Shown: positions 485 to 25,039 of the stretch, piece by piece
Layout of the letters: each line of letters starts with the position of its first letter
Numbering within the stretch: the first letter of the stretch is position 1
From: Euglena gracilis
Taxonomy: Eukaryota
NCBI GenBank assembly: GCA_039621445.1
Contig: CP154954.1
Span: 21,252,642 to 21,277,680, forward strand
Length of the DNA stretch: 25,039 nt
Direction: 5' to 3'
Notes under the pieces: model-generated
The model's input: only the letters and a program-made list of their open reading frames with translations
Databases searched by the model: none
Told to the model about the DNA's origin: nothing
Made by a program: the position numbers and the translations under genes

Positions 485-702
485 GATCAGAGATTTTTTT
501 TTTACGTTTGGTGTCCCGGGGGGGGGGTCAAGCAAAGTGGGCACCCCCCCCACTTCCCTCTATTTTCAGTGCGAAGCGAAGTCGATTTTGGACCCCAGAA
601 TTGACCCCAAAAGTGCCCCCCCCCCCCGCCGCCTGCCCACCCCAAGGGTTCTTGGGTGGGACCGGACCCCCTCCCGTGGTCCTAAAAAAAATGCCTGAGC
701 CG
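485..702 (+). other. Nonconventional intron made of a TIR element with a 7/8 TSD
   Basis: CAGAGATTTTTTT ... AAAAAAATGCCTG; flanks AGCCAGAT (480-487) / AGCCGGAT (698-705). Confidence 0.8.
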
Positions 703-3417: not shown

Positions 3418-3591
3418 GTGTGCCCCCCCCACCCGCCTTCCCTGCATCAAGGTGGCTGCCCTCCCCCCCCCCACAGCCCCACACAGGGGCATCCTGGGCA
3501 TTCTGGCTGTTCACGGAGATTTATGGAAGCGCAAAAACCCCAGTGGAACACCTGACACGACAAGAAACCAACAGTATGCTTGACACGATGG

Positions 3592-3624
3592 ATATGTATA
3601 TATCTTTATATATATACATATATG

Positions 3625-3701
<77 letters not shown>
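3592..3701. repeat. (TA)n microsatellite
   Basis: Direct reading. Confidence 0.95.
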
Positions 3702-3702
<1 letters not shown>

Positions 3703-3704
<2 letters not shown>

Positions 3705-4203
3705 GCAGCGAATCTTTACTTGGCCCGTGGGCCGAGTAAAGACTCCGGGGGGGGGGGTCCATATAGCATCCCCGCGTCCGGCGTTCCCCCCGTTTCGGCC
3801 CCGCGGGGCCCCGGAACCGCGCCGGATCCGGGCCAAATCGGTCGGATCCGGGGAGATTTCTCACTTAATTGGAGGTATAGGGTTAGGTTTGGGTTTGGCA
3901 TTTTTCCGGTCCAAAGTTAGGCCGGAAGTTGGGTTCCGTTTTGGGAAGATTTTCGAATCACCCGTTTTCCCCCAAAAGGCCCCGAAGGGGCCCAAATCCC
4001 CCAAATTTTTGTCCGCCCCGCTACCTAAATCCTCCCCAAAATCCCCAACGGGGGAGCCCTCCGGGAATTTGGTCGCGCACCTAACCCTATTCCAAAAAAT
4101 AACCCCGAATTCTCCCGAAGGTCGGACGCGGGGGATGCTGCACGGACCCCCCCCCCCCTGGAGTCTTTACTCGGCCCGCGGGCCGAGTAAAGACTCGCTG
4201 CCA
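3703..4203. mobile_element. MITE with ~80-bp TIRs containing palindromes, inserted in (TA)n
   Basis: TGGCAGCGA...TCGCTGCCA termini. Perfect 36-bp palindrome at 4161-4196 and a near-perfect one at 3713-3742. Confidence 0.85.
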
Positions 4204-4216
4204 TATACATATATAT

Positions 4217-4701
4217 AGAAGCAAGATTCTATTTGCCCCCCCCCCCCGGGGCCAAGTAGAATCTCCAGGGTGGGGGGTCCGGGTAGCATCTCCTGCGTCC
4301 GCCCTTCGGGAAAATTCGGGGTTATTTTTTGGGGTAGGGTTAGGTGCGCGACCGGATTCCCGGAGGGCGCCCCCGTTGGGGAATTTAGGGAGGGGTTCGG
4401 CCGAATTGTGGGCGAATTTTGGGGGAATTTGGGTCGAATTCAGGCATTTTGGGGGCAAAATGGACCATTCCAAAATCTTCCCAAAACAGAACCCAACGGC
4501 CCAACTTTTTTCCGAAAACGTGCCAATTTTCGGCGGGCCAATCCCAACCCTAACCCTATTCCTCAAATTAAGTGCCACATCTCCCCGGATCCGACCGATT
4601 TGGCCCGGATCCGCTGCGGTTCCGGGGCCCCGTGGAACCGAAACGGAGGGAAGGTCGGACGGGGGGGGGGATGCTACCCGGACCCCCCCCTGGAGATTCT
4701 A
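4217..4701. mobile_element. Second, diverged copy of the same MITE family in inverted orientation
   Basis: Inverted repeats TAGAATCTCCAGGG...GGTCCGGGTAGCATC / GATGCTACCCGGACC...CTGGAGATTCTA. Interior is the reverse-complement homologue of ~3745-4160. Confidence 0.8.
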
Positions 4702-4835
4702 TTATATATATATTATATATATATATATATGCATATACACACATATGTATATATGTATGTATATATGTGTGTATATATGTATATTTTATATGTATATGTG
4801 TGTATGTATATTATATATGTACACATACATATGTA
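4702..4835. repeat. Degenerate TA/TG microsatellite
   Basis: Direct reading. Confidence 0.9.
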
Positions 4836-8920: not shown

Positions 8921-9019
8921 CTTCCATCTGGGGTGACCCAACAGGGCACCAACCCCCCGGGGCAGCCAACGGATGCCAACGTATGCCGGGCGGCCAGCCT
9001 GGTTTGCCCCGGCCCTGCC

Positions 9020-9039
9020 CGCCTTGTTGTGCCCCCCAG
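9020..9039 (+). promoter_or_regulatory. Candidate spliced-leader trans-splicing acceptor
   Basis: Pyrimidine-rich tract ending in CAG (9037-9039), 5 nt before the gene 2 ATG. SL trans-splicing is standard in Euglenozoa. Confidence 0.45.
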
Positions 9040-9044
9040 CATCG

Positions 9045-9127
9045 ATGCCCACACCGGGGCCGCCCGCCCTGCTCCTCGCCCTCCTCCTGACCCTGGCCTC
9101 TTGCGGCAGTGGCGGGCCTGGGCCCCC
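9045..9127 (+). CDS. Gene 2 (Methyltransf_24-type SAM methyltransferase) exon 1 with signal peptide/anchor: MPTPGPPALLLALLLTLASCGSGGPGP(P)
   Basis: ATG followed by hydrophobic ALLLALLLTLA. Joins in frame to the downstream exons. Confidence 0.8.
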
Positions 9128-9130
9128 CTC

Positions 9131-9517
9131 CAGGGTTTGATATGAGGGCGTACATGGTTTAGGTGGGGGGGGTGTCCCCCCCCCTCCTGGCCCGCAGGGG
9201 GGGGGGTCCGGACCACCCCCCCACCTGCCAGGGGGTCCGGACCGACCCTCGGGGGGGTTCCCGGGACGCCCCAAAAAGGGTCATTTTTTTCCTCCGGCGC
9301 TTCGCGCCGAAAATTTTTTGCATTTTTGGCACATTTTTGCCCAAAAAAATGCCCAAAATGGCACTTTTGGTCGTTTTGGGGGGTCAAAAATTTTTCGGTA
9401 ACCCAGACCGCGCACCTGTTTAGGTGGGGGGGGGTGTCCCCCCCACCCCCCCTCCTGGCCCGCGGGGGGGGGGGGTCCGGACCCCCCCCCCCCCACCTGT
9501 CCTTATATCGAACCCTG
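9131..9517. mobile_element. Non-autonomous hAT-like TIR element forming essentially all of intron 9128-9522
   Basis: 17-bp TIR CAGGGTTTGATATGAGG / CCTTATATCGAACCCTG (15/17). Perfect 8-bp flanking repeat CCCCCCTC. Internal direct repeats at ~9158-9228 and ~9418-9499. Confidence 0.85.
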
Positions 9518-9522
9518 CCCCC

Positions 9523-9546
9523 CTCCTCGCTGGCGCAGCTCACCGT
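9523..9546 (+). CDS. Gene 2 micro-exon (24 nt): SSLAQLT(V)
   Basis: Bounded by two introns with pairing ends in the +4/-6 register. Frame is maintained. Confidence 0.75.
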
Positions 9547-10060
9547 GCCCAGGGCCGGCCCGGAAGTGGTCTGTTGGACCCGGGGGGGGGGGGGGGTTGG
9601 GAGCCCAGGGCCCCACTGCCCGGACAAAAAAAACCATCCACACAAAACCCCCCAAAAACCCACAGAACAATTATGGGAAGCTGCCCCAATTTTCCCCATG
9701 TTTCCCCCCGTAATTTTTGTCTTGTGTTGCAAGCCGCCGTCAGGGGCAGTCAAATGACACACACAGAAATACGGGGTGATGTAATGCTGTCAAGTTTTGT
9801 GTTTGTTTTTGAAATGAAAGACCACAACAAAGCGACCAGGAAATCATTTTGACCGTTTGAATTCTTGAGGTTCTTTTTTGCCAAAAAAAACTTCAAACAA
9901 AAACTTAAATGTTAAATTTCCCCATTTTTTTTGCATATGGGAAATCATGAGAAATCAAAAGAATTTCCATGATTTTGATTTTTGAGCTGTTTCCATAATT
10001 TTGTCTCGCATAATTTTTGTCCTCACCCCAACCTCTTGGTCCCTGGCTGGCCCCGGCACT

Positions 10061-10126
10061 GCGGGAGCAGATTGGCGCGCTACTGGAAGTGGAGAACATG
10101 ACGGTGGGGGCGGAGCTGGGGGTCCA
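10061..10126 (+). CDS. Gene 2 exon: REQIGALLEVENMTVGAELGV(Q)
   Basis: First half of SAM-binding motif I (ExGVxxG). Confidence 0.85.
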
Positions 10127-10209
10127 GCCCAGAGCTGGGGGGTTGCTCGAGGCCGGCCGAGCATCCTTAGTTCCCTCGTGGTCCGCCCGCCGTCACAATC
10201 TGAATCAAC

Positions 10210-10520
10210 CAGGGCGGTCCACAAGGGATGGGAAGTTTTTTTTTCAAAGGATTGCCCCTTAAGGACTGCCTTAGGCCCAAGGGAGGGCCAACGGCCGGTC
10301 TGGGGATCGAATGAGGGCAAAAATCAAACGGTCGGAGAACGTATTTTTGACGTTTTGGGTGGATGGGCGATGGTCCAAGGACGCCCGAAATCACTTTGTT
10401 CCCCGAAGTCGACCCATTTTTGCCACAATACGGCCCTTTTTCCGTCCATTTTTTCCGATGAATTTTTCATTGACTGTGCTGGGACAGGCAGTGTCTTTTT
10501 TCCCGTTAAGGACCGCCCTG
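10210..10520. mobile_element. CAGGGCGGTCC-family MITE nested in a nonconventional intron
   Basis: Perfect 11-bp TIR CAGGGCGGTCC/GGACCGCCCTG; flanks GAATCAAC/GCACCAAC. Confidence 0.8.
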
Positions 10521-10693
10521 GCACCAACTCGTCGAGTTACGGCCCGCAATGTTTCGCGGAGAAAGTCATTTCCTCTCCCCCAACCTTCCCCCCCCCCCCC
10601 GCGGACGTCGGCGAGCGGGGTGAGCATCAAAGTGTTCTGCTTCTTTCCCCCAAAGACGGACGCCGTCGTCCCCCCCCCCCGGCCCTGTCTGCT

Positions 10694-10773
10694 GAGAGGC
10701 CAGTTCGCCCTCCAGACCCTCTCCCACTGGCCGTCCTGCCGGCGGTATTACCTCGTGGACCTGTGGCAGCCCC
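10694..10773 (+). CDS. Gene 2 exon: RGQFALQTLSHWPSCRRYYLVDLWQP(Q)
   Basis: Completes ELGVQRG; 'YLVDxW' acidic motif II. 5' boundary uncertain by 1-2 nt. Confidence 0.85.
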
Positions 10774-11261
10774 AGGCAGGGCTGAACGGGAACCTGGGAA
10801 GCCCTCGTGGATGGGGTGGGGGAAGGTCGCAGCACCCCCGGGGAGGATGAAGGGGCACAATTGACTCCCTTTGGCGGCCTGGCTTTGCGGGGGGGAGTGC
10901 TCCAGCCCCCCCCCCCCCCCCCCCCCCCGGTGCAGTGGCCCGAAACGGCCTGAAGCCGCCTTGGCAACCATGGGTTGCCCATGGGCAGGCACCCCATGGC
11001 CTACGGCATCCCCCTCCCCGGCGGTGGTCGGAAGCTTTGCAGGGCTCGAACCCCGACCCCCACCCTGGTGGGTCGGGAGACCAACCCCCACCAACCCTTC
11101 CCATTTTCCCCCCTTCCATTTTTTGGTCAAAGTGTTGGTTAAAGCCGAGGGCCCCTTTCCCGGGGCAGTGCCAAACCGGGTGGGGAGGGGGTATGTGTGC
11201 GGCGGACGGGAGAGCCTACGGCACACTGCAGTGGTAGGTGCGGAACACCAAGGCCAGTCTG

Positions 11262-11334
11262 ATCCGGATAGATTATTGGTTAAGGTGTTGGCCTCACAAG
11301 CAGGAGGTCGTGGGTTCGAGACCCAGGTCCCGCC
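11262..11334 (+). pseudogene. Degenerate tRNA-Val(CAC)-derived sequence (pseudo-tRNA or SINE head)
   Basis: TAG..TGGTTAA (box A-like), anticodon loop CTCACAA, AGGTC variable loop, TGGG-TTCGAGA-CCCA T arm (box B). Acceptor and anticodon stems are mismatched. Confidence 0.65.
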
Positions 11335-11449
11335 GTGTGAGTGGTCGACCCCGTACTGGCAGAGGATATACCGCGGGGATCGATCGGCGCACCTTCGGCT
11401 GTATACAGGCACCCCCCCTCACCTGGCCTCCCCATCCAGCCCCGGCGCC

Positions 11450-11521
11450 AGGACAACTACACGGAGTCCGCCAACGTCCCCCTCCCCCAACAGGAACGCT
11501 ACCTCGCCGAGGCCCGCCATC
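11450..11521 (+). CDS. Gene 2 exon: DNYTESANVPLPQQERYLAEARH
   Basis: GC3-rich, in frame, flanked by pairing introns with 7/8 and 6/8 direct repeats. Confidence 0.85.
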
Positions 11522-11660
11522 CCCCACGGCTGGGCGCCGCTGAGGGTCGTCCCCCGAGGGAAGGGGTTGGGCTTTGGTTCGGTTTGGAGGAGGCTTCGAC
11601 CCCTTCCCCCGATGGTTGGGTCCGTTTTGGGGGTGGGGGGATGACAACGCAACCCCGGCA

Positions 11661-11925
11661 CTGAGCTTTTTTTTAAGTTTTGTGACCCAAGGGGTGGGTG
11701 GGCCCCAGCTGAGACCCCCCCCCCCGGGGGTCGGGCCAAGCGGGCACCCTCCCGGAGGCGGGTTTTTCTTCTATTTTCGGCGCTTTGCGCCGAAATCATT
11801 TTTTTTTTGTGCCCAAAATTGACCCCCCAAAAGTGGGCCCCCCGAGCCCCCCCCCCCCGGGTCCTGGAGGTGAGTGGGTGGGTGGGTCCGGACCCCCCTC
11901 CCCCAGGGCCTTAAAACAACTTCTG
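11661..11925. mobile_element. MITE related to the intron 485-702 element
   Basis: Shares CTATTTTC...CCCAxAATTGACCCC..AAAAGTG...CCGGACCCC internal blocks and T-run/A-run ends; flanks CCCCGGCA/CCCCAGCG. Confidence 0.7.
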
Positions 11926-12608
11926 CCCCAGCGCGAAGGTGCTGGGGGCCCAAAAATGCCATTTTTCAGGAAACGTGCCTCGGTTGGCCCAAGCCAGGAC
12001 ACAGAACAAACCCCCTCCTGGCAGGGGTTTGGCGAGGGCACCGGACGGTACCCTGGTCCCTTGCCCTTTGCAGTGATGGGTGGTGGGCTGCCCAAACAGT
12101 GCTGCCCTTGCTGGCGCTGCAAAAGAGGCCCTGGGAACCCCTTTCAGCCGCCATCAATCGCTTGAGGAGGGCATGAGAAATCGCTTGAGAAAGGGATGTT
12201 TGCTGTCTTAACAGGTCAGGGAAACTGCTGGAGGGGGAGATGGCCCTTGACAGCTTGGCCAAGTGCCAGGGGGTGGGGAAGCACTTATGTTTTGCTTGAG
12301 TTTTGCAAACCTTATCGGGCACATTCAAAATGAACGGATAAAATAATTTAGGGAACCAAGGGTTTTGATTCAGCGGGAAAAAATTTAAACCACTTCCGTG
12401 GAACAACCCTCCGCACCAACATGCCTGGCTCAGGCAGCACCAGGAAGTGCACCTGCTGACTGCGTGCCAGCGCGTCAAAAAAAGTGGGGGTTTCAAATAT
12501 TGGGGCATGGAAGGCTCTTTGCCGACACAGTGCCCTGTCCTTGGAAGCTTGGAAGCTCTTCTGGCATCCCGGCAGTGCCGGGGGTTGGAACGGCTCAGCC
12601 GTGCCACC

Positions 12609-12682
12609 GCCTGGCACCGTTCAACGCCTCCGTGGTCTACCTCCGGATGTTCACCACGGAGGCGGCCAAACGGATCCCCGAC
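12609..12682 (+). CDS. Gene 2 exon: (R)LAPFNASVVYLRMFTTEAAKRIPD
   Basis: Family-typical 'RxxSxEAAxxIPD'. In frame. Confidence 0.9.
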
Positions 12683-12853
12683 GCCATGGCCGGCGCTCGC
12701 TCATTTTTCTTTCCGGGCGTGGTGAGTTGGTGCATGTGCCCGGTGGCGTGCGTGCGTCGCAGGTTTCAAGCGTTCCCGTAATGGTCCACATGAGCTGTAT
12801 GATTTCCACAGCTTGTGAAACATAATGAAGGAGGTCCAAGGGCAGAGGGTGAG

Positions 12854-13155
12854 CAGACTTTTTTTTTAAGGAAGTACGCCGCCCCCCCCCCCCTGGGAGG
12901 GACAGGCTGGGGGGTGGGGGATTTTCGACCCCCCTCCCCCGTGGGATCGCATTTTGGGGCGGGTAGTGCTATGGCACGCCCCCCGCCCCCGGCGCCAACG
13001 GTGCCGGGGCCCGAAAATGGCCATTTTCAAGGGACAATTGGCTTGGTCAGCGGTCACTGGAGTCCAGATTAGGGGGGGGGGTTCCTGCTCTGGGCAGGCA
13101 CCGCCCAGCGCAAGGCACCCCCTCCTCCCCCCGGGGTCGGCAAACAGGCAGCCTG
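12854..13155. mobile_element. CAG...CTG element with a perfect 8-bp TSD, nested in intron 12683-13287
   Basis: AGGGTGAG (12846-12853) CAGACTTTTTTTTTAAGG ... GCAGCCTG AGGGTGAG (13156-13163). Confidence 0.8.
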
Positions 13156-13287
13156 AGGGTGAGGTTTCTGCCTCACCAAGGCCGCTCCGCAGCCTCTCTC
13201 CAGCAAACGCTGCGCACTTGCATGCGGCAGCCTCGGAGACTTGGCATGCACGCCCACCCCAGCTCTCCTCAGCACCCGCCGTGTCTC

Positions 13288-13352
13288 ATGTCCCTGGACT
13301 ATGTATACATCGACGCCCGGCACGACTACTGTGGGGTGATGGAGGACCTCCT
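13288..13352 (+). CDS. Gene 2 exon: MSLDYVYIDARHDYCGVMEDL(L)
   Basis: Hallmark Methyltransf_24 motif 'DxxYIDxxHxYxxVxxDL'. Confidence 0.92.
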
Positions 13353-14361
13353 AAGCAAGCACCTATGCCTAAAATGGCCTAAAATGGTCTAAAATGACTT
13401 TCTGACCCCCTATAGGTGGGGGTCCCTAAAATGGTCTGAAATGGCCTAAAATGGGGAAAATGCTGTTGCACAACACTTTTTTTTGTGAACAACTGAATCC
13501 ATTCCGGTAATGATTTTTGGTGTCTTTTGTTAATGTGGACGGCGAATGCTAATGTGGACGGTGAACAGTGCATTTGGTTGAAGAGCACAGCCCACAAAGC
13601 CCATTTTTCTGATCCCAATTAATATTAGTATCAGTCCCCAAATCCACGGCCCTCAAACTTCTTTTGGCGCTGAATTTTGAAGGTTTGGGCAGCTGTATTT
13701 TGTGAAGATTTTCAGAGAGCTTCCCATTTCGGCAATTTTCAACAACCATTTGGCACACAGTATCGAAGAGTTTTGCATACAACAACCAACCCAAAATGGC
13801 TAAAATTTTCCTAAAATATGGCGAATACAGCAAAATCGGACGAAAAAATACGAAAACAGGAGAAAGGGTCGAAAACATATGTCATTGCTGCGATCGTGGA
13901 CTAATCGTGGATGGGGAATAGACAAAAAAAAACAGAATCAAGGAAGCGGTAAATATTCCATTCTGCTTCAAACGCCATGTTTGACAGAAATGTAACACAA
14001 AAATAGAATAACTAACGTGATTTTAAGGAATTCAACATTCCTGAAGTAACACCAAATTGAAACGAAAGGAACAGCATTGCGCCTTGCTTTCTTCTTCCAG
14101 GAGAAACAAGAGGACAGTGCAGGAAAACAGAACGAAGACAAGCTTAGAACAACAAACGAAGCGATCAAATTGGATTTCACCGAGCAACAGCATCATCTTT
14201 AAAAAAACACTTCTTTTTGCGAAATCCCGCAAAAATGGTGTTGATTTCACAAAATACAAAAAGCCGGGCGCTGTTTTGGTAGCGCAAATAAAAACTTTTA
14301 ATATTTTCCCAACATTTTTTTTTTTTTTTTTTGAGTTTTTATTTTTTTTTTTTTTTTTTTT

Positions 14362-14413
<52 letters not shown>

Positions 14414-14769
14414 CCCCTTTTTTTTTTCATTTTTTTTTTTTTTTTTTTTGTTTCCGAAAAATATTTTCACTGCTGTAAATTTGAACTGTTCAGAATTCCT
14501 GTATGGGTATGAATTAAGATTTGTTGAGCTTCCCATGGTTTTGATCCAGTGTTCATGAATTTTGCACGCTTTTTTGGCTGTACGTTTATTATCACTGAAT
14601 AAGAGAAGGTTTGCAAACGTTATGATACAGTTTTTGGGAGAAAAATGCTGCAAAATTATGGTTTTCAGAACCCCCACCTGTGCCTTAAAATGGCCTAAAA
14701 TGGCCTGAAATGGCCTGAAATGGCCTAAAATGGGGAAATTTTTGGGCTTGACTATAGGTGCTTGCTTCT
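13353..14769 (+). other. Nonconventional intron with a perfect 14-bp terminal inverted repeat and subterminal GCCTAAAATG arrays
   Basis: AAGCAAGCACCTAT (13353-13366) / ATAGGTGCTTGCTT (14754-14767); flanks CTCCTAAG / CTTCTGAG. Confidence 0.88.
14314..14449. repeat. Poly(T) tract, ~135 nt
   Basis: Direct reading; exact length may be unreliable. Confidence 0.9.
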
Positions 14770-17407: not shown

Positions 17408-19983
17408 CAGGGGGGGATATGAAGCGCGCATATTCTTCACATATTTTGCATATTTAGCACATGTTGGCCAAAAAGTGCATGTTGTGTATATTTAGCACAT
17501 ATTCCGAGAGTTTTCAGAATTTCTGCCACATACTTTACTCATTCCATGTCTTTTGGGGCCGTTTGAATTTTTCCAACCATTTTAAGCCATTTGCTTTCAT
17601 CTCAGGCGGTGCATCTCGCATTTAAGCTTTTTTTTTGGTCGATGTGCGCATTTTCGCAAACCGACCAAAAACCACTTTGATCGCCAGCGTTACAAGGGGT
17701 GAGAGCAAGGGGCAGCAGGATTGGACAAAATAAGAGCGATTTCTCATTTTTGGCACTGACTCTCCCAGGAATTATGTGTTTTTTTGCTGTTTTTTTTTAG
17801 GTTGGAATGTCACAAAAACCCCCGGACCTATCCCCCCAAAGTGAAAAAAAACACCGACAAAAACTCCAAAACCATTGTACCGCCACCCCCATTCCCTGTG
17901 TGACAGCTGCCAGCGCCAGGTGGTGCTCTGGAGGTGGGGTGCAGGTCCATCCCTTTGCTTGCTTTTTGAAGTTTTGCGACACGTTGTGGAGGTTTTTGAA
18001 GTTGGTTACGAAAGGAGTGGAAGTGCACATGCCACATGAACAATGCACTGTTCGAGAATTCTGCCACCGAGGGATGATGAAGAGGATACAGAACACAGCA
18101 GGACTGCCACCGGTTGCCCATTGAGTTCGGTGGCAAGTTGTCCATCAATGCCCCACTGATGTTTAAGGCTCCGTGGCACCAACGCAACGTCATAAATGAG
18201 GTCGGTTTGCGCAAATGCGCACATGGACGATGTGCGCATTTGCGCACATGGACGATGTGCGCATTTGCGCACGCCGACGCTTTAAAACCAACCAAGAGCC
18301 TCCAATGGCAGTGTGTTTGGAGCTGGAAAATGAATATGGCAACACTGTGATATTACCTCCCTGGTATTCATTTGGTGCTGGACCCCTCTGTTGAATGCTG
18401 CTGGTATGTTTGGGCGGTTGGTGTGCGCAAATGCGCACATCAGCCATTAAAATGGTTGCTTTTCACAACTGTGGGCACCAACCAGAACTATTTTTCATTT
18501 TGAAGCCTTGGCAACAGGGATTTCTGCCACAAGAGAAGGATCGAAACAGGAGGAGAGCAGATTGTGGGGGTGTTGTGCTCAAAGTGGTGGTGTTGCAAGG
18601 TACGTCTGAGAAGGTCAAATGAAGTGTGTCGGTATTTTTAAGTTAGTAGACACATCCATTTCAAGCCAATGTATTGTGCCTCATTTTGAGACTAAAAAGG
18701 GTGAAGGGCACTTTTAAACTCGTTTTTTTTTGGATAAAACCTGAAGATGTTGTTTATTTTGATGTTTCAGGGGCTAAGAAATGGTTTTTAACAGGCTCAA
18801 TTGCCAATGCCCAAATTTGGGCCCGCAGGCTGGTCATTCTGTTGAGTTTAAGTAAAACAGAATACCTTGCATTTAAGGATTTTCAAACTGCAGTGGTGCC
18901 ACACCCTCCAAATGATACGTGGGTTAAGTTGCAGAAAAGGTTGGCGTGCACAGATGCGCAAACCGACCAAAAAGTCTGGTTTCGCATTTGCACAAACCAA
19001 CCACTTGAACAAATTTACAAACACACCAATTGCAGCTGGCACAGATGGTCTTTTTCACAGTTGCACAAACGGCTGGTGTGCGCATTTGCGCACCATCTAT
19101 TTGCGCACACCATCTATTTGCGCATTTGCCCGCCCACCAATATCTCACATAGACAAGTTTCAGGTTATTGTTTCAGGCGTATGCCCACCCACCAAATCGT
19201 TCAGTCAATATCCTAATTTAATAAGACAGCCATTGTAGGATTCTGAACACACCTGCTGGGTGTAGTCTATATTATGTGCTGCGGTGATTCCTGCTCCTAG
19301 GCACCCTATTTGCCAAAGTCCCTGCTCCCATCTCCGCGTCCTGTGGCAACACATCACATCCTCCCTACATTTTTTTTATATTTTCGGGGTCGTATCTTGT
19401 CATTTTCATAAAAAATGTCGATGTGCGCAATTGCGCACATCGTCAAAGAAAAAAGCTTAAGTGCGAGATGCGCCGCCTAAGTTCATTTCGGAGGCATTTT
19501 CGAGCTTTTTTTTTTCCAATTTCGGGCCATTTTTTTTAACATTGAGCAACTTAAGGCCATTTTTGGGCCATTTTGGACCATTTATGGTCATTTTTGGTCA
19601 TTTTCTATCATGGTTGGCCTTTTTTTTTGAGAAAATCTGCTGCTTTGGTCATTTGAGCCATTTTCCATCGCAAAATCATTGTAATTTGCTGAAAATGGCC
19701 AAAAACGACCAAAAAGAAAATAGGCCCAAAATGGCCCGAAATGATGGGAAAATGGTCTAAAACAGCCGATTGTGCCCGTTGTGGGCTGAAATGGCCCCAG
19801 AATGGACCAAAACGGCTTGAAATGACTTGCTGGTTGGGTCATTTGAATATGTCCAAATATGTCTCGGTTCCAGGAAAATTGTATGTATATTCAGCATATT
19901 TTTCCGCATTTTTAACGCATATCCCTGCATGTTTTAGCGCATATTTGGGGGAGCTTTTTAGCGCATATTCCCCCCCCCCCCTG
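17408..19983. mobile_element. Probable TIR element (CAGGGGGGGATATG...CATATTC(n)CTG) with GCATATT subterminal repeats
   Basis: Inverted termini and GCATATT arrays at both ends. TSD not clean. Confidence 0.5.
17603..19479. mobile_element. ~1.9-kb TIR element with ~48-bp TIRs and TGCGCA palindromic repeats, nested in the previous element
   Basis: CAGGCGGTGCATCTCGCATTTAAGCTTTTT...GATGTGCGCA vs TGCGCACATC...AAAAAGCTTAAGTGCGAGATGCGCCGCCTA; TTCATCTC/TTCATTTC adjacent to the ends. Confidence 0.85.
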
Positions 19984-23722: not shown

Positions 23723-24157
23723 CTTGGCACGAAGCGACATAAATACTTGATATGATCTCTAGAGCAGTGGGTCGTCTCATGTCCACCCTCCCACCCTCCC
23801 ACCGTGATCCAAAAGGACAAACTCTTGGACAGCAGGCGGGACGGTACCCCCCCCCCCCGTTAATGCATCCGTCTCACACCCGCAAGCCAGTGCACACTTC
23901 CAGCGGCGGCCCTGCGGGGGATACCGGGCCAACCGCCCCGCTGCCGCCAACCGGTCTGTGCCTGTGCCGTCTGCCACTCCCGCCCAGGGTTGTATGGGAA
24001 GCTCCGTAGGGGGTGGGGGGTCACCCCCCCCAGGGGGTAAGGTGGTAGGGGGGGGTCCCCCCTCCTAGTTTCGGAAGGGGGGTCCCCCCACCCCCCTTCT
24101 CCGAGATTCCCATCCAAGCCTGCTCCTGCCGCTGCTGGCTGACCCTCTCCGGAGCCG

Positions 24158-24409: not shown

Positions 24410-25039
24410 ATTACCCACCCCCTTTTCTGGGGGGGACAAGAAAACAAAAAACCATTGGTTAATGATAACCTGATTGGTTAATGATAAGTAACCTGGACCC
24501 CCTTTTTTGCTCAATGGCGCTGGATTTTATGCCTAAATAACCTTGGTGCTATTTTTTTTTACCACACCTCCCCAAGCCAGAAACTGGCACGTCGCCGGGC
24601 TATTTGGGGAAGGGGATGGCATTTTTAGAGGCCACTCAGTTAAACTGGGGAAAATTTGGAATCCCTGGCTTTTGGTTCCCTGAGTCTCTGCGGAGCCTCT
24701 CTTGCCGAGCCTCTGCGGAGTCTGGTTACCTGGGTGCTTCCCCACGGAGCCTCCCCAGCTCATGGAATTCGTGTTCAGGTCACCACAAACCCCGTCTTCA
24801 GGCCACCTCCAAGACTGCACCACATCTCATGCCCCCCCTCCCTGGCACAACGCATCCCCAATTCAGTGAGCGTTGTTTGAATGTTGTTTTTTGCAAGGGG
24901 GGGTCAGACCTCTCCCCCGGTGTGCTCAGACCCCACCTCCTTCCTTTCAGACCCGAGGGGTCCAGGACCGTCCCAAACCAAAAATAGTGCCCCCCCCCAG
25001 TCCGGAGTGCCCCCCCCCCTCCTGCCAGGGGGTCTGCAC

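Follow-up and report, generated by a model that had tools for sequence, protein, structure and literature searches.

The nonconventional introns of euglenids follow the code 5'-N3CDG-/-CH'GN5-6, with complementary middle bases in the two triplets and a purine (R) where the acceptor exon begins (PMC12501133, PMC3935182), and are released as circular RNA in a spliceosome-independent step (PMC11282704). Knock-ins in Euglena gracilis showed that the donor spacer is strictly 3 nucleotides (nt), that the acceptor spacer is 5 nt with 6 tolerated, and that CAG/CTG together with adjoining pairing is needed; natural and synthetic cassettes were spliced out of a foreign exon and are hence portable (PMC12501133). 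As first base of the acceptor exon, a purine is favoured without being strictly required, and an A-to-C change at this position gave an unstable transcript (PMC12501133). In E. agilis, nonconventional introns make up 71.8% of the total, and short direct repeats render 84.4% of all introns 'slidable' (PMC12501133). The present analysis concerns a 25,039-nt stretch of the E. gracilis genome (contig CP154954.1, positions 21,252,642 to 21,277,680; hereafter the window), in which the first intron of a methyltransferase gene is very probably one copy of a MITE (miniature inverted-repeat transposable element).

The MITE hypothesis dates from 2014, when Milanowski et al. proposed MITE-like insertions as an intron source from the inverted ends, described direct repeats at most junctions and stated that euglenid genomes had at that time no identified transposable elements (PMC3935182). 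A 2024 review reads CAG/CTG as a terminal inverted repeat (TIR) and describes repeats resembling a target-site duplication (TSD) as frequent at junctions (PMC11282704, Fig. 3D legend). A 2025 paper cites the MITE idea and still calls both the origin of nonconventional introns and the way they are removed unclear (PMC12501133). The introner elements of Micromonas, Aureococcus, dinoflagellates and others are likewise DNA transposons in exons that are removed from RNA, with the target duplication supplying part of what is removed or kept (PMC11282704, PMC9860276).

The intron in the window shares with other euglenid nonconventional introns the lack of GT-AG borders, CAG at +4..+6 and CTG at -8..-6, spacers of 3 and 5 nt, a terminal helix that joins the ends, a direct repeat that makes the junction slidable, and, probably, exact absence from the mature messenger. 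It differs from them in that the whole intron is one recognisable copy of a multi-copy transposon with a perfect 8-bp duplication, and in that the acceptor exon begins with C, not with a purine. As in the MITE-origin hypothesis, the inverted repeats of the intron ends are read as transposon ends and the junction repeats resemble TSDs; whereas the available text of those papers (PMC3935182, PMC11282704) gives no duplication length, superfamily or repeated family, the present locus adds a duplication length (8 bp), a signal of high copy number and a transcript. Introners depend on the spliceosome and on GT/GC-AG sites to which the duplication contributes in part (in M. pusilla, 3 nt; PMC11282704, PMC9860276), whereas here no canonical site is possible and the cut positions would be counted from the paired ends. 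The locus is an unusually clean new example of an existing hypothesis, to which it adds a quantitative point that was not found in print, namely that 8 = 3 + 5.

Intron 1 of the methyltransferase gene

A protein search with the stop-to-stop ATG frame 8937-9140 matched a single protein, P0001 (eukprot EG_transcript_27551, 235 amino acids, PF13578), which is taken as the product of an E. gracilis transcript because of its record name. P0001 is 100% identical to the exon-1 part of the frame (tblastn places residues 1-29 at 9045-9131); it begins MPTPGPPALLLALLLTLASCGSGGPGPPSSLAQLTVREQIGALLEVENMTVGAELGVQ and reads GSGGPGPPSSLAQLTVREQIG / GPGPPSSLAQLTV across junction 1. By tblastn and an exact spliced fit of P0001, the gene has 11 exons and 10 introns on the forward strand, from 9039 to about 22771, and the open frame is kept across all 11 exons in the window allele. 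This fit to a transcript-derived PF13578 protein bears out the earlier note, made from the sequence alone, in assigning the element to intron 1 of a methyltransferase; the coordinates and letters of the repeat, the ends and the element are also as it gave them.

P0001 is the one member of its 90% cluster. Its family comprises 6 further E. gracilis members at 54-70% identity, together with relatives from green algae that carry O-methyltransferase annotations. The linker between a signal-peptide-like N-terminus and the conserved domain, where the insertion falls, is variable across the 7 E. gracilis paralogues. Single exons had no Pfam match, so no domain call comes from individual exons, and a protein search with the frame 12967-13392 gave no match, that exon being too short. 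Two early exon placements (exon 4 at ~10541 and exon 3 starting at 10055) were rejected by the P0001 fit.

A removal of 395 nt at the first junction is the only length that gives 0 mismatches to P0001, and no loss of another length was observed. Since 395 = 387 + 8, the messenger lacks the 387-bp element plus one 8-nt copy of the flanking repeat, and the frame is restored as had been claimed. The 395-nt removal has 11 equivalent donor positions (9121-9131), all giving an identical messenger, and GT/GC-AG borders are found in none of these 11 placements. The actual cuts, hidden by a direct repeat, would be located by the published code, which one placement alone satisfies (Table 1). The sum 3 + 5 = 8 agrees with the experimentally defined code (PMC12501133).

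The element has the features of a MITE: 387 bp without coding capacity, 17-bp inverted ends and an adjoining 8-bp duplication, whose two copies are identical at 8/8 positions. The reverse complement of the right end, CAGGGTTCGATATAAGG, matches the left end at 15 of 17 positions, and the two mismatches are transitions, both of them G.U pairs in sense RNA. A degenerate 17-mer pattern of the ends has two sites only in the window, the ends at 9131 and 9501; with up to 3 mismatches, shuffled sequences averaged 0.21 matches, and at least two matches occurred in 1 shuffle out of 100. In the RNA fold of 9113-9535 (minimum free energy -251.7 kcal/mol, z = -5.8, equalled by 0 of 100 shuffles), an uninterrupted terminal helix of 20 bp (9131-9150 with 9498-9517) has as its first pair the C of CAG with the G of CTG. 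The middle part, between two G/C modules of ~70 nt, consists of A/T runs. The frame 9146-9757, which spans the element, has no Pfam match, and the element consists of runs of G, C, A and T.

Four sequencing runs were aligned to 8921-14300, among them the DNA run X1 and the presumed RNA run X15. Summed X1 contig depth, which is not equal to copy number, amounts to 1.23 million at 9101-9280, 1.97 million at 9281-9460 and 0.47 million at 9461-9640, versus 86 in the bin before (8921-9100) and 113 in the bin after (9641-9820). Variant letters within the element are borne by 96-105 different X1 contigs. A GAG insertion at 9143, in the left end, occurs in 10 contigs with a total depth of 13,864, and the inner modules at 9165-9197 reach depths of 2.0-3.2 million, far above the ends (~14 thousand); the ends themselves are multi-copy, less so than the inner modules. 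The element is not single-copy; the flanks that were read for its family are those of the window copy. In metagenomes, a scan with the end motif gave, among the matches listed, at least 117 loci with one match each and none with both ends, and blastn of the element against metagenome loci gave four 20-nt matches only, at chance level, and no copies.

One X15 contig (1071 nt, depth 54.7) is identical to the window over 9039-9121. The match ends at 9121, exactly where a 9121>9517 joint, ambiguous over 10 letters and set as far left as possible, would end, whereas a 396-nt removal would end at 9122; the contig end is consistent with a 395-nt removal. The majority of aligned RNA reads are less than 95% alike and stem from paralogues, whose sequences also match the loose ends of these reads.

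Taken together, the inverted ends, flanking repeat, high copy number and exact messenger loss lie far beyond chance. In the explanation that fits best, a non-autonomous cut-and-paste DNA transposon (the 387-bp MITE, with 17-bp ends starting CAGGG) would have inserted into the first coding exon of a gene for a secreted-type PF13578 methyltransferase and duplicated an 8-bp target, CCCCCCTC. The two ends would pair in the pre-mRNA as a helix of ~20 bp that sets CAG at +4..+6 and CTG at -8..-6, and a non-spliceosomal machinery would cut 3 nt before CAG and 5 nt after CTG. The left copy would then be divided into 5 exonic and 3 intronic bases and the right copy into 5 intronic and 3 exonic bases, the messenger retaining one full copy. 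With the cuts at N3 and N5, the element plus 8 nt would therefore be removed and the pre-insertion frame (GPGPP-SSLAQ) restored without a scar. We consider it highly probable that a MITE inserted here with an 8-bp duplication and that the pre-mRNA loses it as a nonconventional intron.

Table 1. Coordinates of the element, its host exons and comparable features in the window
Feature	Position	Strand	Remarks
Exon 1	9039..9127	+	5' leader, ATG at 9045, signal-peptide-like N-terminus MPTPGPPALLLALLLTLASCGSGGPGPP; end set by the N3 rule
Intron 1, N3-CAG...CTG-N5, 395 nt	9128..9522	+	Sole placement meeting the published code
Exon 2, encoding (S)SLAQLTV	9523..9546	+	Spliced fit
Left copy of putative target-site duplication, CCCCCCTC	9123..9130	+	First 5 nt exonic, last 3 nt donor spacer
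Right copy of putative target-site duplication, CCCCCCTC	9518..9525	+	First 5 nt acceptor spacer, last 3 nt exonic
MITE-like element, non-coding, 387 bp	9131..9517	+	Inverted ends, X1 depth; flanks CCCCCCTC / CCCCCCTC, 8/8
Left terminal inverted repeat, CAGGGTTTGATATGAGG	9131..9147	+	Within the 20-bp terminal helix of the RNA fold
Right terminal inverted repeat, CCTTATATCGAACCCTG	9501..9517	+	Pairs with the left end in the RNA fold
Left subterminal G-run/C-run module	9157..9222	+	Direct repeat of 9418-9491, 86% over 74 aligned columns
Right subterminal G-run/C-run module	9418..9491	+	Same orientation as the left module
CAG...CTG element, 210 bp	488..697		Flanks AGCCAGAT / AGCCGGAT, 7/8
CAG...CTG element, 311 bp, CAGGGCGGTCC ends	10210..10520	+	Nested in intron 3, not itself an intron; flanks GAATCAAC / GCACCAAC, 6/8
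CAG...CTG element, 138 bp	23985..24122		Flanks CTCCCGCC / CTCCTGCC, 7/8
Intron 7, 1417 nt, 1409-bp element (13356-14764) plus 8 nt	13353..14769	+	Perfect 11-bp inverted ends CAAGCACCTAT

Superfamily and rival explanations

In the window, 56 pairs of CAG and CTG lie 40-3000 nt apart and match as an inverted repeat at 11 or more of their first 14 nt. Four of the 56 have 8-nt flanks that match at 6 or more of 8 positions (Table 1), against an expected 0.35 from the fraction of 0.0062 among 18,769 control CAG...CTG pairs without good ends. For flank lengths of k = 3-12, each in its own register, significant repeats (P<0.005) were found at 4 pairs for k = 8 and at 0-1 for all other lengths. Shuffling in 200-nt blocks (100 replicates) gave a mean of 0.13 qualifying pairs and a maximum of 2, none with 4. 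Duplication-like flanks are therefore present at three CAG-ended elements besides the one in intron 1, matching at 6/8-7/8. A general scan for any TIR with 2-12-nt flank repeats was swamped by the palindromic region 3600-4780 and by microsatellites and was not used; the flank-repeat test with all 64 start triplets was also swamped by microsatellites.

The full direct repeat around the intron 1 element is 10 nt long (GCCCCCCTCC, at 9122-9131 and 9517-9526), with one extra matching base per side. It consequently has two symmetric readings, 8 bp duplicated around an element that ends in CAG...CTG or 10 bp around one that ends in AG...CT, and 8 is preferred over 10 because the three other CAG...CTG elements of the window fit 8, not 10. 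Three of the four flank-repeat elements start with CAGGG. The element at 23985-24122 begins CAGGGTTG, like the element at 9131-9517. For this element and that at 488-697, open frames follow removal of the element plus 8 nt, as expected by chance in GC-rich sequence. Because the element at 10210-10520 sits inside intron 3, CAG-ended elements also insert in non-coding DNA, and being an intron is not what defines them. This element is high-copy in X1 (summed depth 1.2-2.1 x 10^5 in bins 10181-10540). Several X1 contigs omit 98-126 nt within it, which suggests deletion variants.

The earlier note called the intron 1 element an hAT-like MITE. Its MITE anatomy (387 bp, inverted ends, duplication, repeated occurrence) holds up, but membership of hAT is not established, as Merlin elements also produce 8-bp duplications and the 8-mers depart from the Buster consensus. 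Judged by duplication length and end motif, assignment to hAT is an even call. The general hAT end motif is YARNG, which the CAGGG ends fit, and the target consensus of Ac is nTnnnnAn. None of the 8-mers CCCCCCTC, AGCCAGAT, GAATCAAC and CTCCCGCC has T at position 2 with A at position 7, and none has TA at positions 4-5 as in the Buster target consensus nnnTAnnn (PMC3517528), four sites being too few for a consensus. The 8-bp duplications of the four CAG-ended elements and the short 17-bp ends starting CAGGG are features of the hAT type, which has 8-bp duplications and short inverted ends of 5-27 bp (PMC3517528, PMC3942097). The hAT MITE Mar of Drosophila willistoni has ends CAG(G/A)GGTAGGC and 8-bp duplications (PMC3517528). 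MITEs of the Mar type resemble the present element in being a few hundred bp long and non-coding, with short CAG(G/A)G ends and duplications of 8 bp, and in having many copies, which often lie within genes or close to them (PMC3517528). The present element differs in having no known partner transposase, in 8-mers that are off the Buster consensus, and in its probable removal from RNA by a non-spliceosomal code.

The element may instead be a MITE of another superfamily, either mobilised by Merlin or belonging to a further superfamily that duplicates 8 bp, such as P; this is the most serious of the rival explanations, if still the less probable side of the question. Two Merlin families with 8-bp duplications are documented in the draft genome of E. 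gracilis itself (PMC8101967), so that host species and duplication length coincide. Among 20 window frames searched against Pfam there is no transposase, BED or hAT-dimerisation domain, a result that counts against the hAT reading, as do the absence of TA at positions 4-5 from all four 8-mers (0/4 on the Buster consensus; PMC3517528) and the 9-nt repeat at intron 5 of the gene. Merlin elements have, however, 8-9-bp duplications with a conserved terminal 5'-GG and ends of 24-462 bp (PMC8101967), whereas the present element starts with CAG and has 17-bp ends, and in all four elements CAG...CTG directly adjoins the duplication. CAGGG is also the start of Mar (PMC3517528), and short ends combined with 8-bp duplications are hallmarks of hAT (PMC3517528, PMC3942097).

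A second rival concerns the transcript, which could derive from an allele or strain with an empty site (a single CCCCCCTC), the window copy being unspliced or poorly spliced and in effect null, with a stop at 9141. An empty allele and a scarless splice yield equal messengers, so the transcript alone cannot separate them. Several findings weigh on this side and against splicing of the filled allele. P0001 differs from the window translation at 5 of 235 residues and may for that reason stem from another allele, another strain or a very close copy (a sixth difference, at residue 216, is only apparent, tblastn having read through intron 10). On the left flank, the X1 contig (8781-9131) stops precisely at 9131, the last base common to the filled and the empty site; this could reflect a fork between the two forms, that is, an insertion polymorphism in that strain. 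Elsewhere in the gene, X1 holds two diverged, haplotype-like forms of intron 5 (12243-12476; records 6 and 7), with 0 and 12 differences in 233 nt at depths of 40 and 55. The acceptor exon would begin with C at 9523 (N5) or T at 9524 (N6), not with the preferred purine, and a pyrimidine at this position is disfavoured in knock-ins (PMC12501133). The 9121>9517 joint is not among the 15 of 354 joints listed, all of which are repeat-driven joints of the DNA run.

Against an empty-site origin, the element has the other features required in the published work, N3-CAG and CTG-N5 with adjoining pairing over 12 bp or more, and cassettes of this kind were spliced from a foreign exon (PMC12501133). Moreover, the frame of the window allele is open through 11 exons, and the X15 contig is identical to exon 1 of the window. 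The empty-site origin is accordingly unlikely, and the knock-in literature makes splicing of the filled allele itself the likelier reading, one that we hold with good confidence.

A chance match of the flanks in C-rich coding DNA, around an old nonconventional intron containing common repeats, is very improbable: CCCCCCTC is indeed C-rich and of low complexity, as the earlier note had cautioned, the element itself contains similar words (CCCCCCTCCTGG) at 9179 and 9447, and the inner G/C modules are far commoner than the ends (2-3 million versus ~14 thousand in depth), but the duplication directly adjoins the inverted ends, the ends are multi-copy (10 variant contigs at 9143), 8-nt flank repeats are also found at three more CAG-ended elements, the excess being confined to k = 8, and the site lies in the linker that varies among the paralogues.

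Other introns and repeats of the window

Intron 7 also consists of an element with inverted ends plus 8 nt (Table 1). Its flanking 8-mers, CTCCTAAG and CTTCTGAG, match at 6 of 8 positions, and both differences are transitions. Subterminal CCTAAAATGG repeats occur at both ends in equal orientation, and the left end is high-copy in X1 (bins 13241-13600). With N3 and N5 counted from the TIRs, the acceptor exon begins with G. Intron 3 reads N3-CAG/CTG-N6 and intron 10 N3-CGG/CCG-N5; introns 2 and 4 have CAG/CCG, intron 4 being alternatively readable as GC-AG. The 8-nt flanks match at 4 positions in intron 2, 0 in intron 3 and 4 in intron 10. Part of intron 4 (11261-11440) is high-copy in X1 (~1.5 x 10^5) and contains the tRNA-T-arm-like sequence GGTTCGAGACC; ARAGORN and Rfam gave no match anywhere in the window, including this region.

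At the 5' end of the gene, the X15 contig carries 24 extra letters upstream of 9039, after the AG at 9037-9038 and six bases before the ATG. Euglena messengers are trans-spliced with a spliced leader, and the stretch 9037-9045 probably holds the spliced-leader acceptor of the gene.

Three further kinds of repeat are present in the window. A G-run/C-run module (for example GGGGGGGGGTCCGGACCCCCCC, flanked by AGGTG/CACCT) is present at 9157-9227, 9418-9499, 2555-2608, 11868-11910, 24009-24032 and 25000-25034; its summed X1 depth of 2-3 million is far above that of the ends of the 9131-9517 element, and it has the look of a mini-palindrome that is extremely abundant in the genome. The word AAAATGGC has 17 sites (for example 9355, 13371, 14687, 14697 and 19526-19735) versus 3.5 expected, a number equalled in 0 of 100 shuffles. 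It lies mostly in subterminal tandem arrays of intronic repeats and could be a transposase-binding motif common to several element families. A nested inverted repeat at 3590-4790, with arms of 69-192 nt and 80-91% complementarity, is bracketed by (AT)n/(TA)n microsatellites (3592-3701 and 4703-4835) and may be a long hairpin-forming element.

Spacer lengths and intron origin

Beyond this locus, the fixed 3-nt and 5-nt spacers may together equal the 8-bp duplication of CAG-ended hAT-like transposons, with the code and the duplication causally linked and most nonconventional introns arising as such insertions. This wider proposition, which four elements and two introns in 25 kb support, is tentative, and we regard it as somewhat doubtful. 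The earlier note had presented such insertions as the reason for the splice geometry and as intron generators; the arithmetic stands, but the evolutionary link between spacer lengths and duplication length is inferred from one gene and four elements in 25 kb. That the pattern is general is not established, and in this gene several introns speak against it. An element with inverted ends plus 8 nt accounts for only 2 of the 10 introns (1 and 7), and introns 6, 8 and 9 are incompatible with the 3 + 5 geometry. Intron 5 (1087 nt; 11516-12611), with perfect 8-bp inverted ends CACGGCTG...CAGCCGTG, has a flank repeat of 9 nt (GCCATCCCC / GCCACCGCC, 7/9 matching), which fits N3 + N6 or a different element class with 9-bp duplications. 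The remaining 8 of the 10 introns are older, of another kind or of another origin.

The earlier note had left open whether the 3 + 5 = 8 explanation was already published. A MITE origin (PMC3935182) and TSD-like repeats with CAG/CTG ends (PMC11282704) are in print. In full-text literature searches, no explicit tie of the 3 + 5 spacers or of nonconventional introns to an 8-bp duplication or to hAT was found, although figures and supplements (PMC12501133 Fig. 1B, S3; PMC11282704 Fig. 3D) may bear on the point; the term '8-bp' has 0 occurrences in the text of the Euglena intron papers searched.

If the wider proposition is true, the strict 3-nt donor and 5-nt acceptor spacers would be accounted for: the 'random' spacers of the code would be the halves of target duplications, and the acceptor purine would be target position 6. 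Whenever such a transposon inserted into an exon, it would be cut from the RNA and leave no scar. The code would then be an RNA-level neutraliser for one class of transposons or, just as well, a filter through which that class alone can build up in exons. It follows as a prediction for the E. gracilis and E. agilis assemblies that the length of the flank repeats of CAG/CTG introns peaks at 8 (5 exonic + 3 intronic), that such introns cluster in repeat families, and that a transposase-bearing master copy with the same ends exists. As a concrete case, and a young-looking one, the locus described here combines intact ends with a perfect 8-bp duplication, a high copy number and a transcript from which the element is exactly missing. 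If the proposition holds, Euglena would represent a second, non-spliceosomal route of genome-scale intron creation by transposons.

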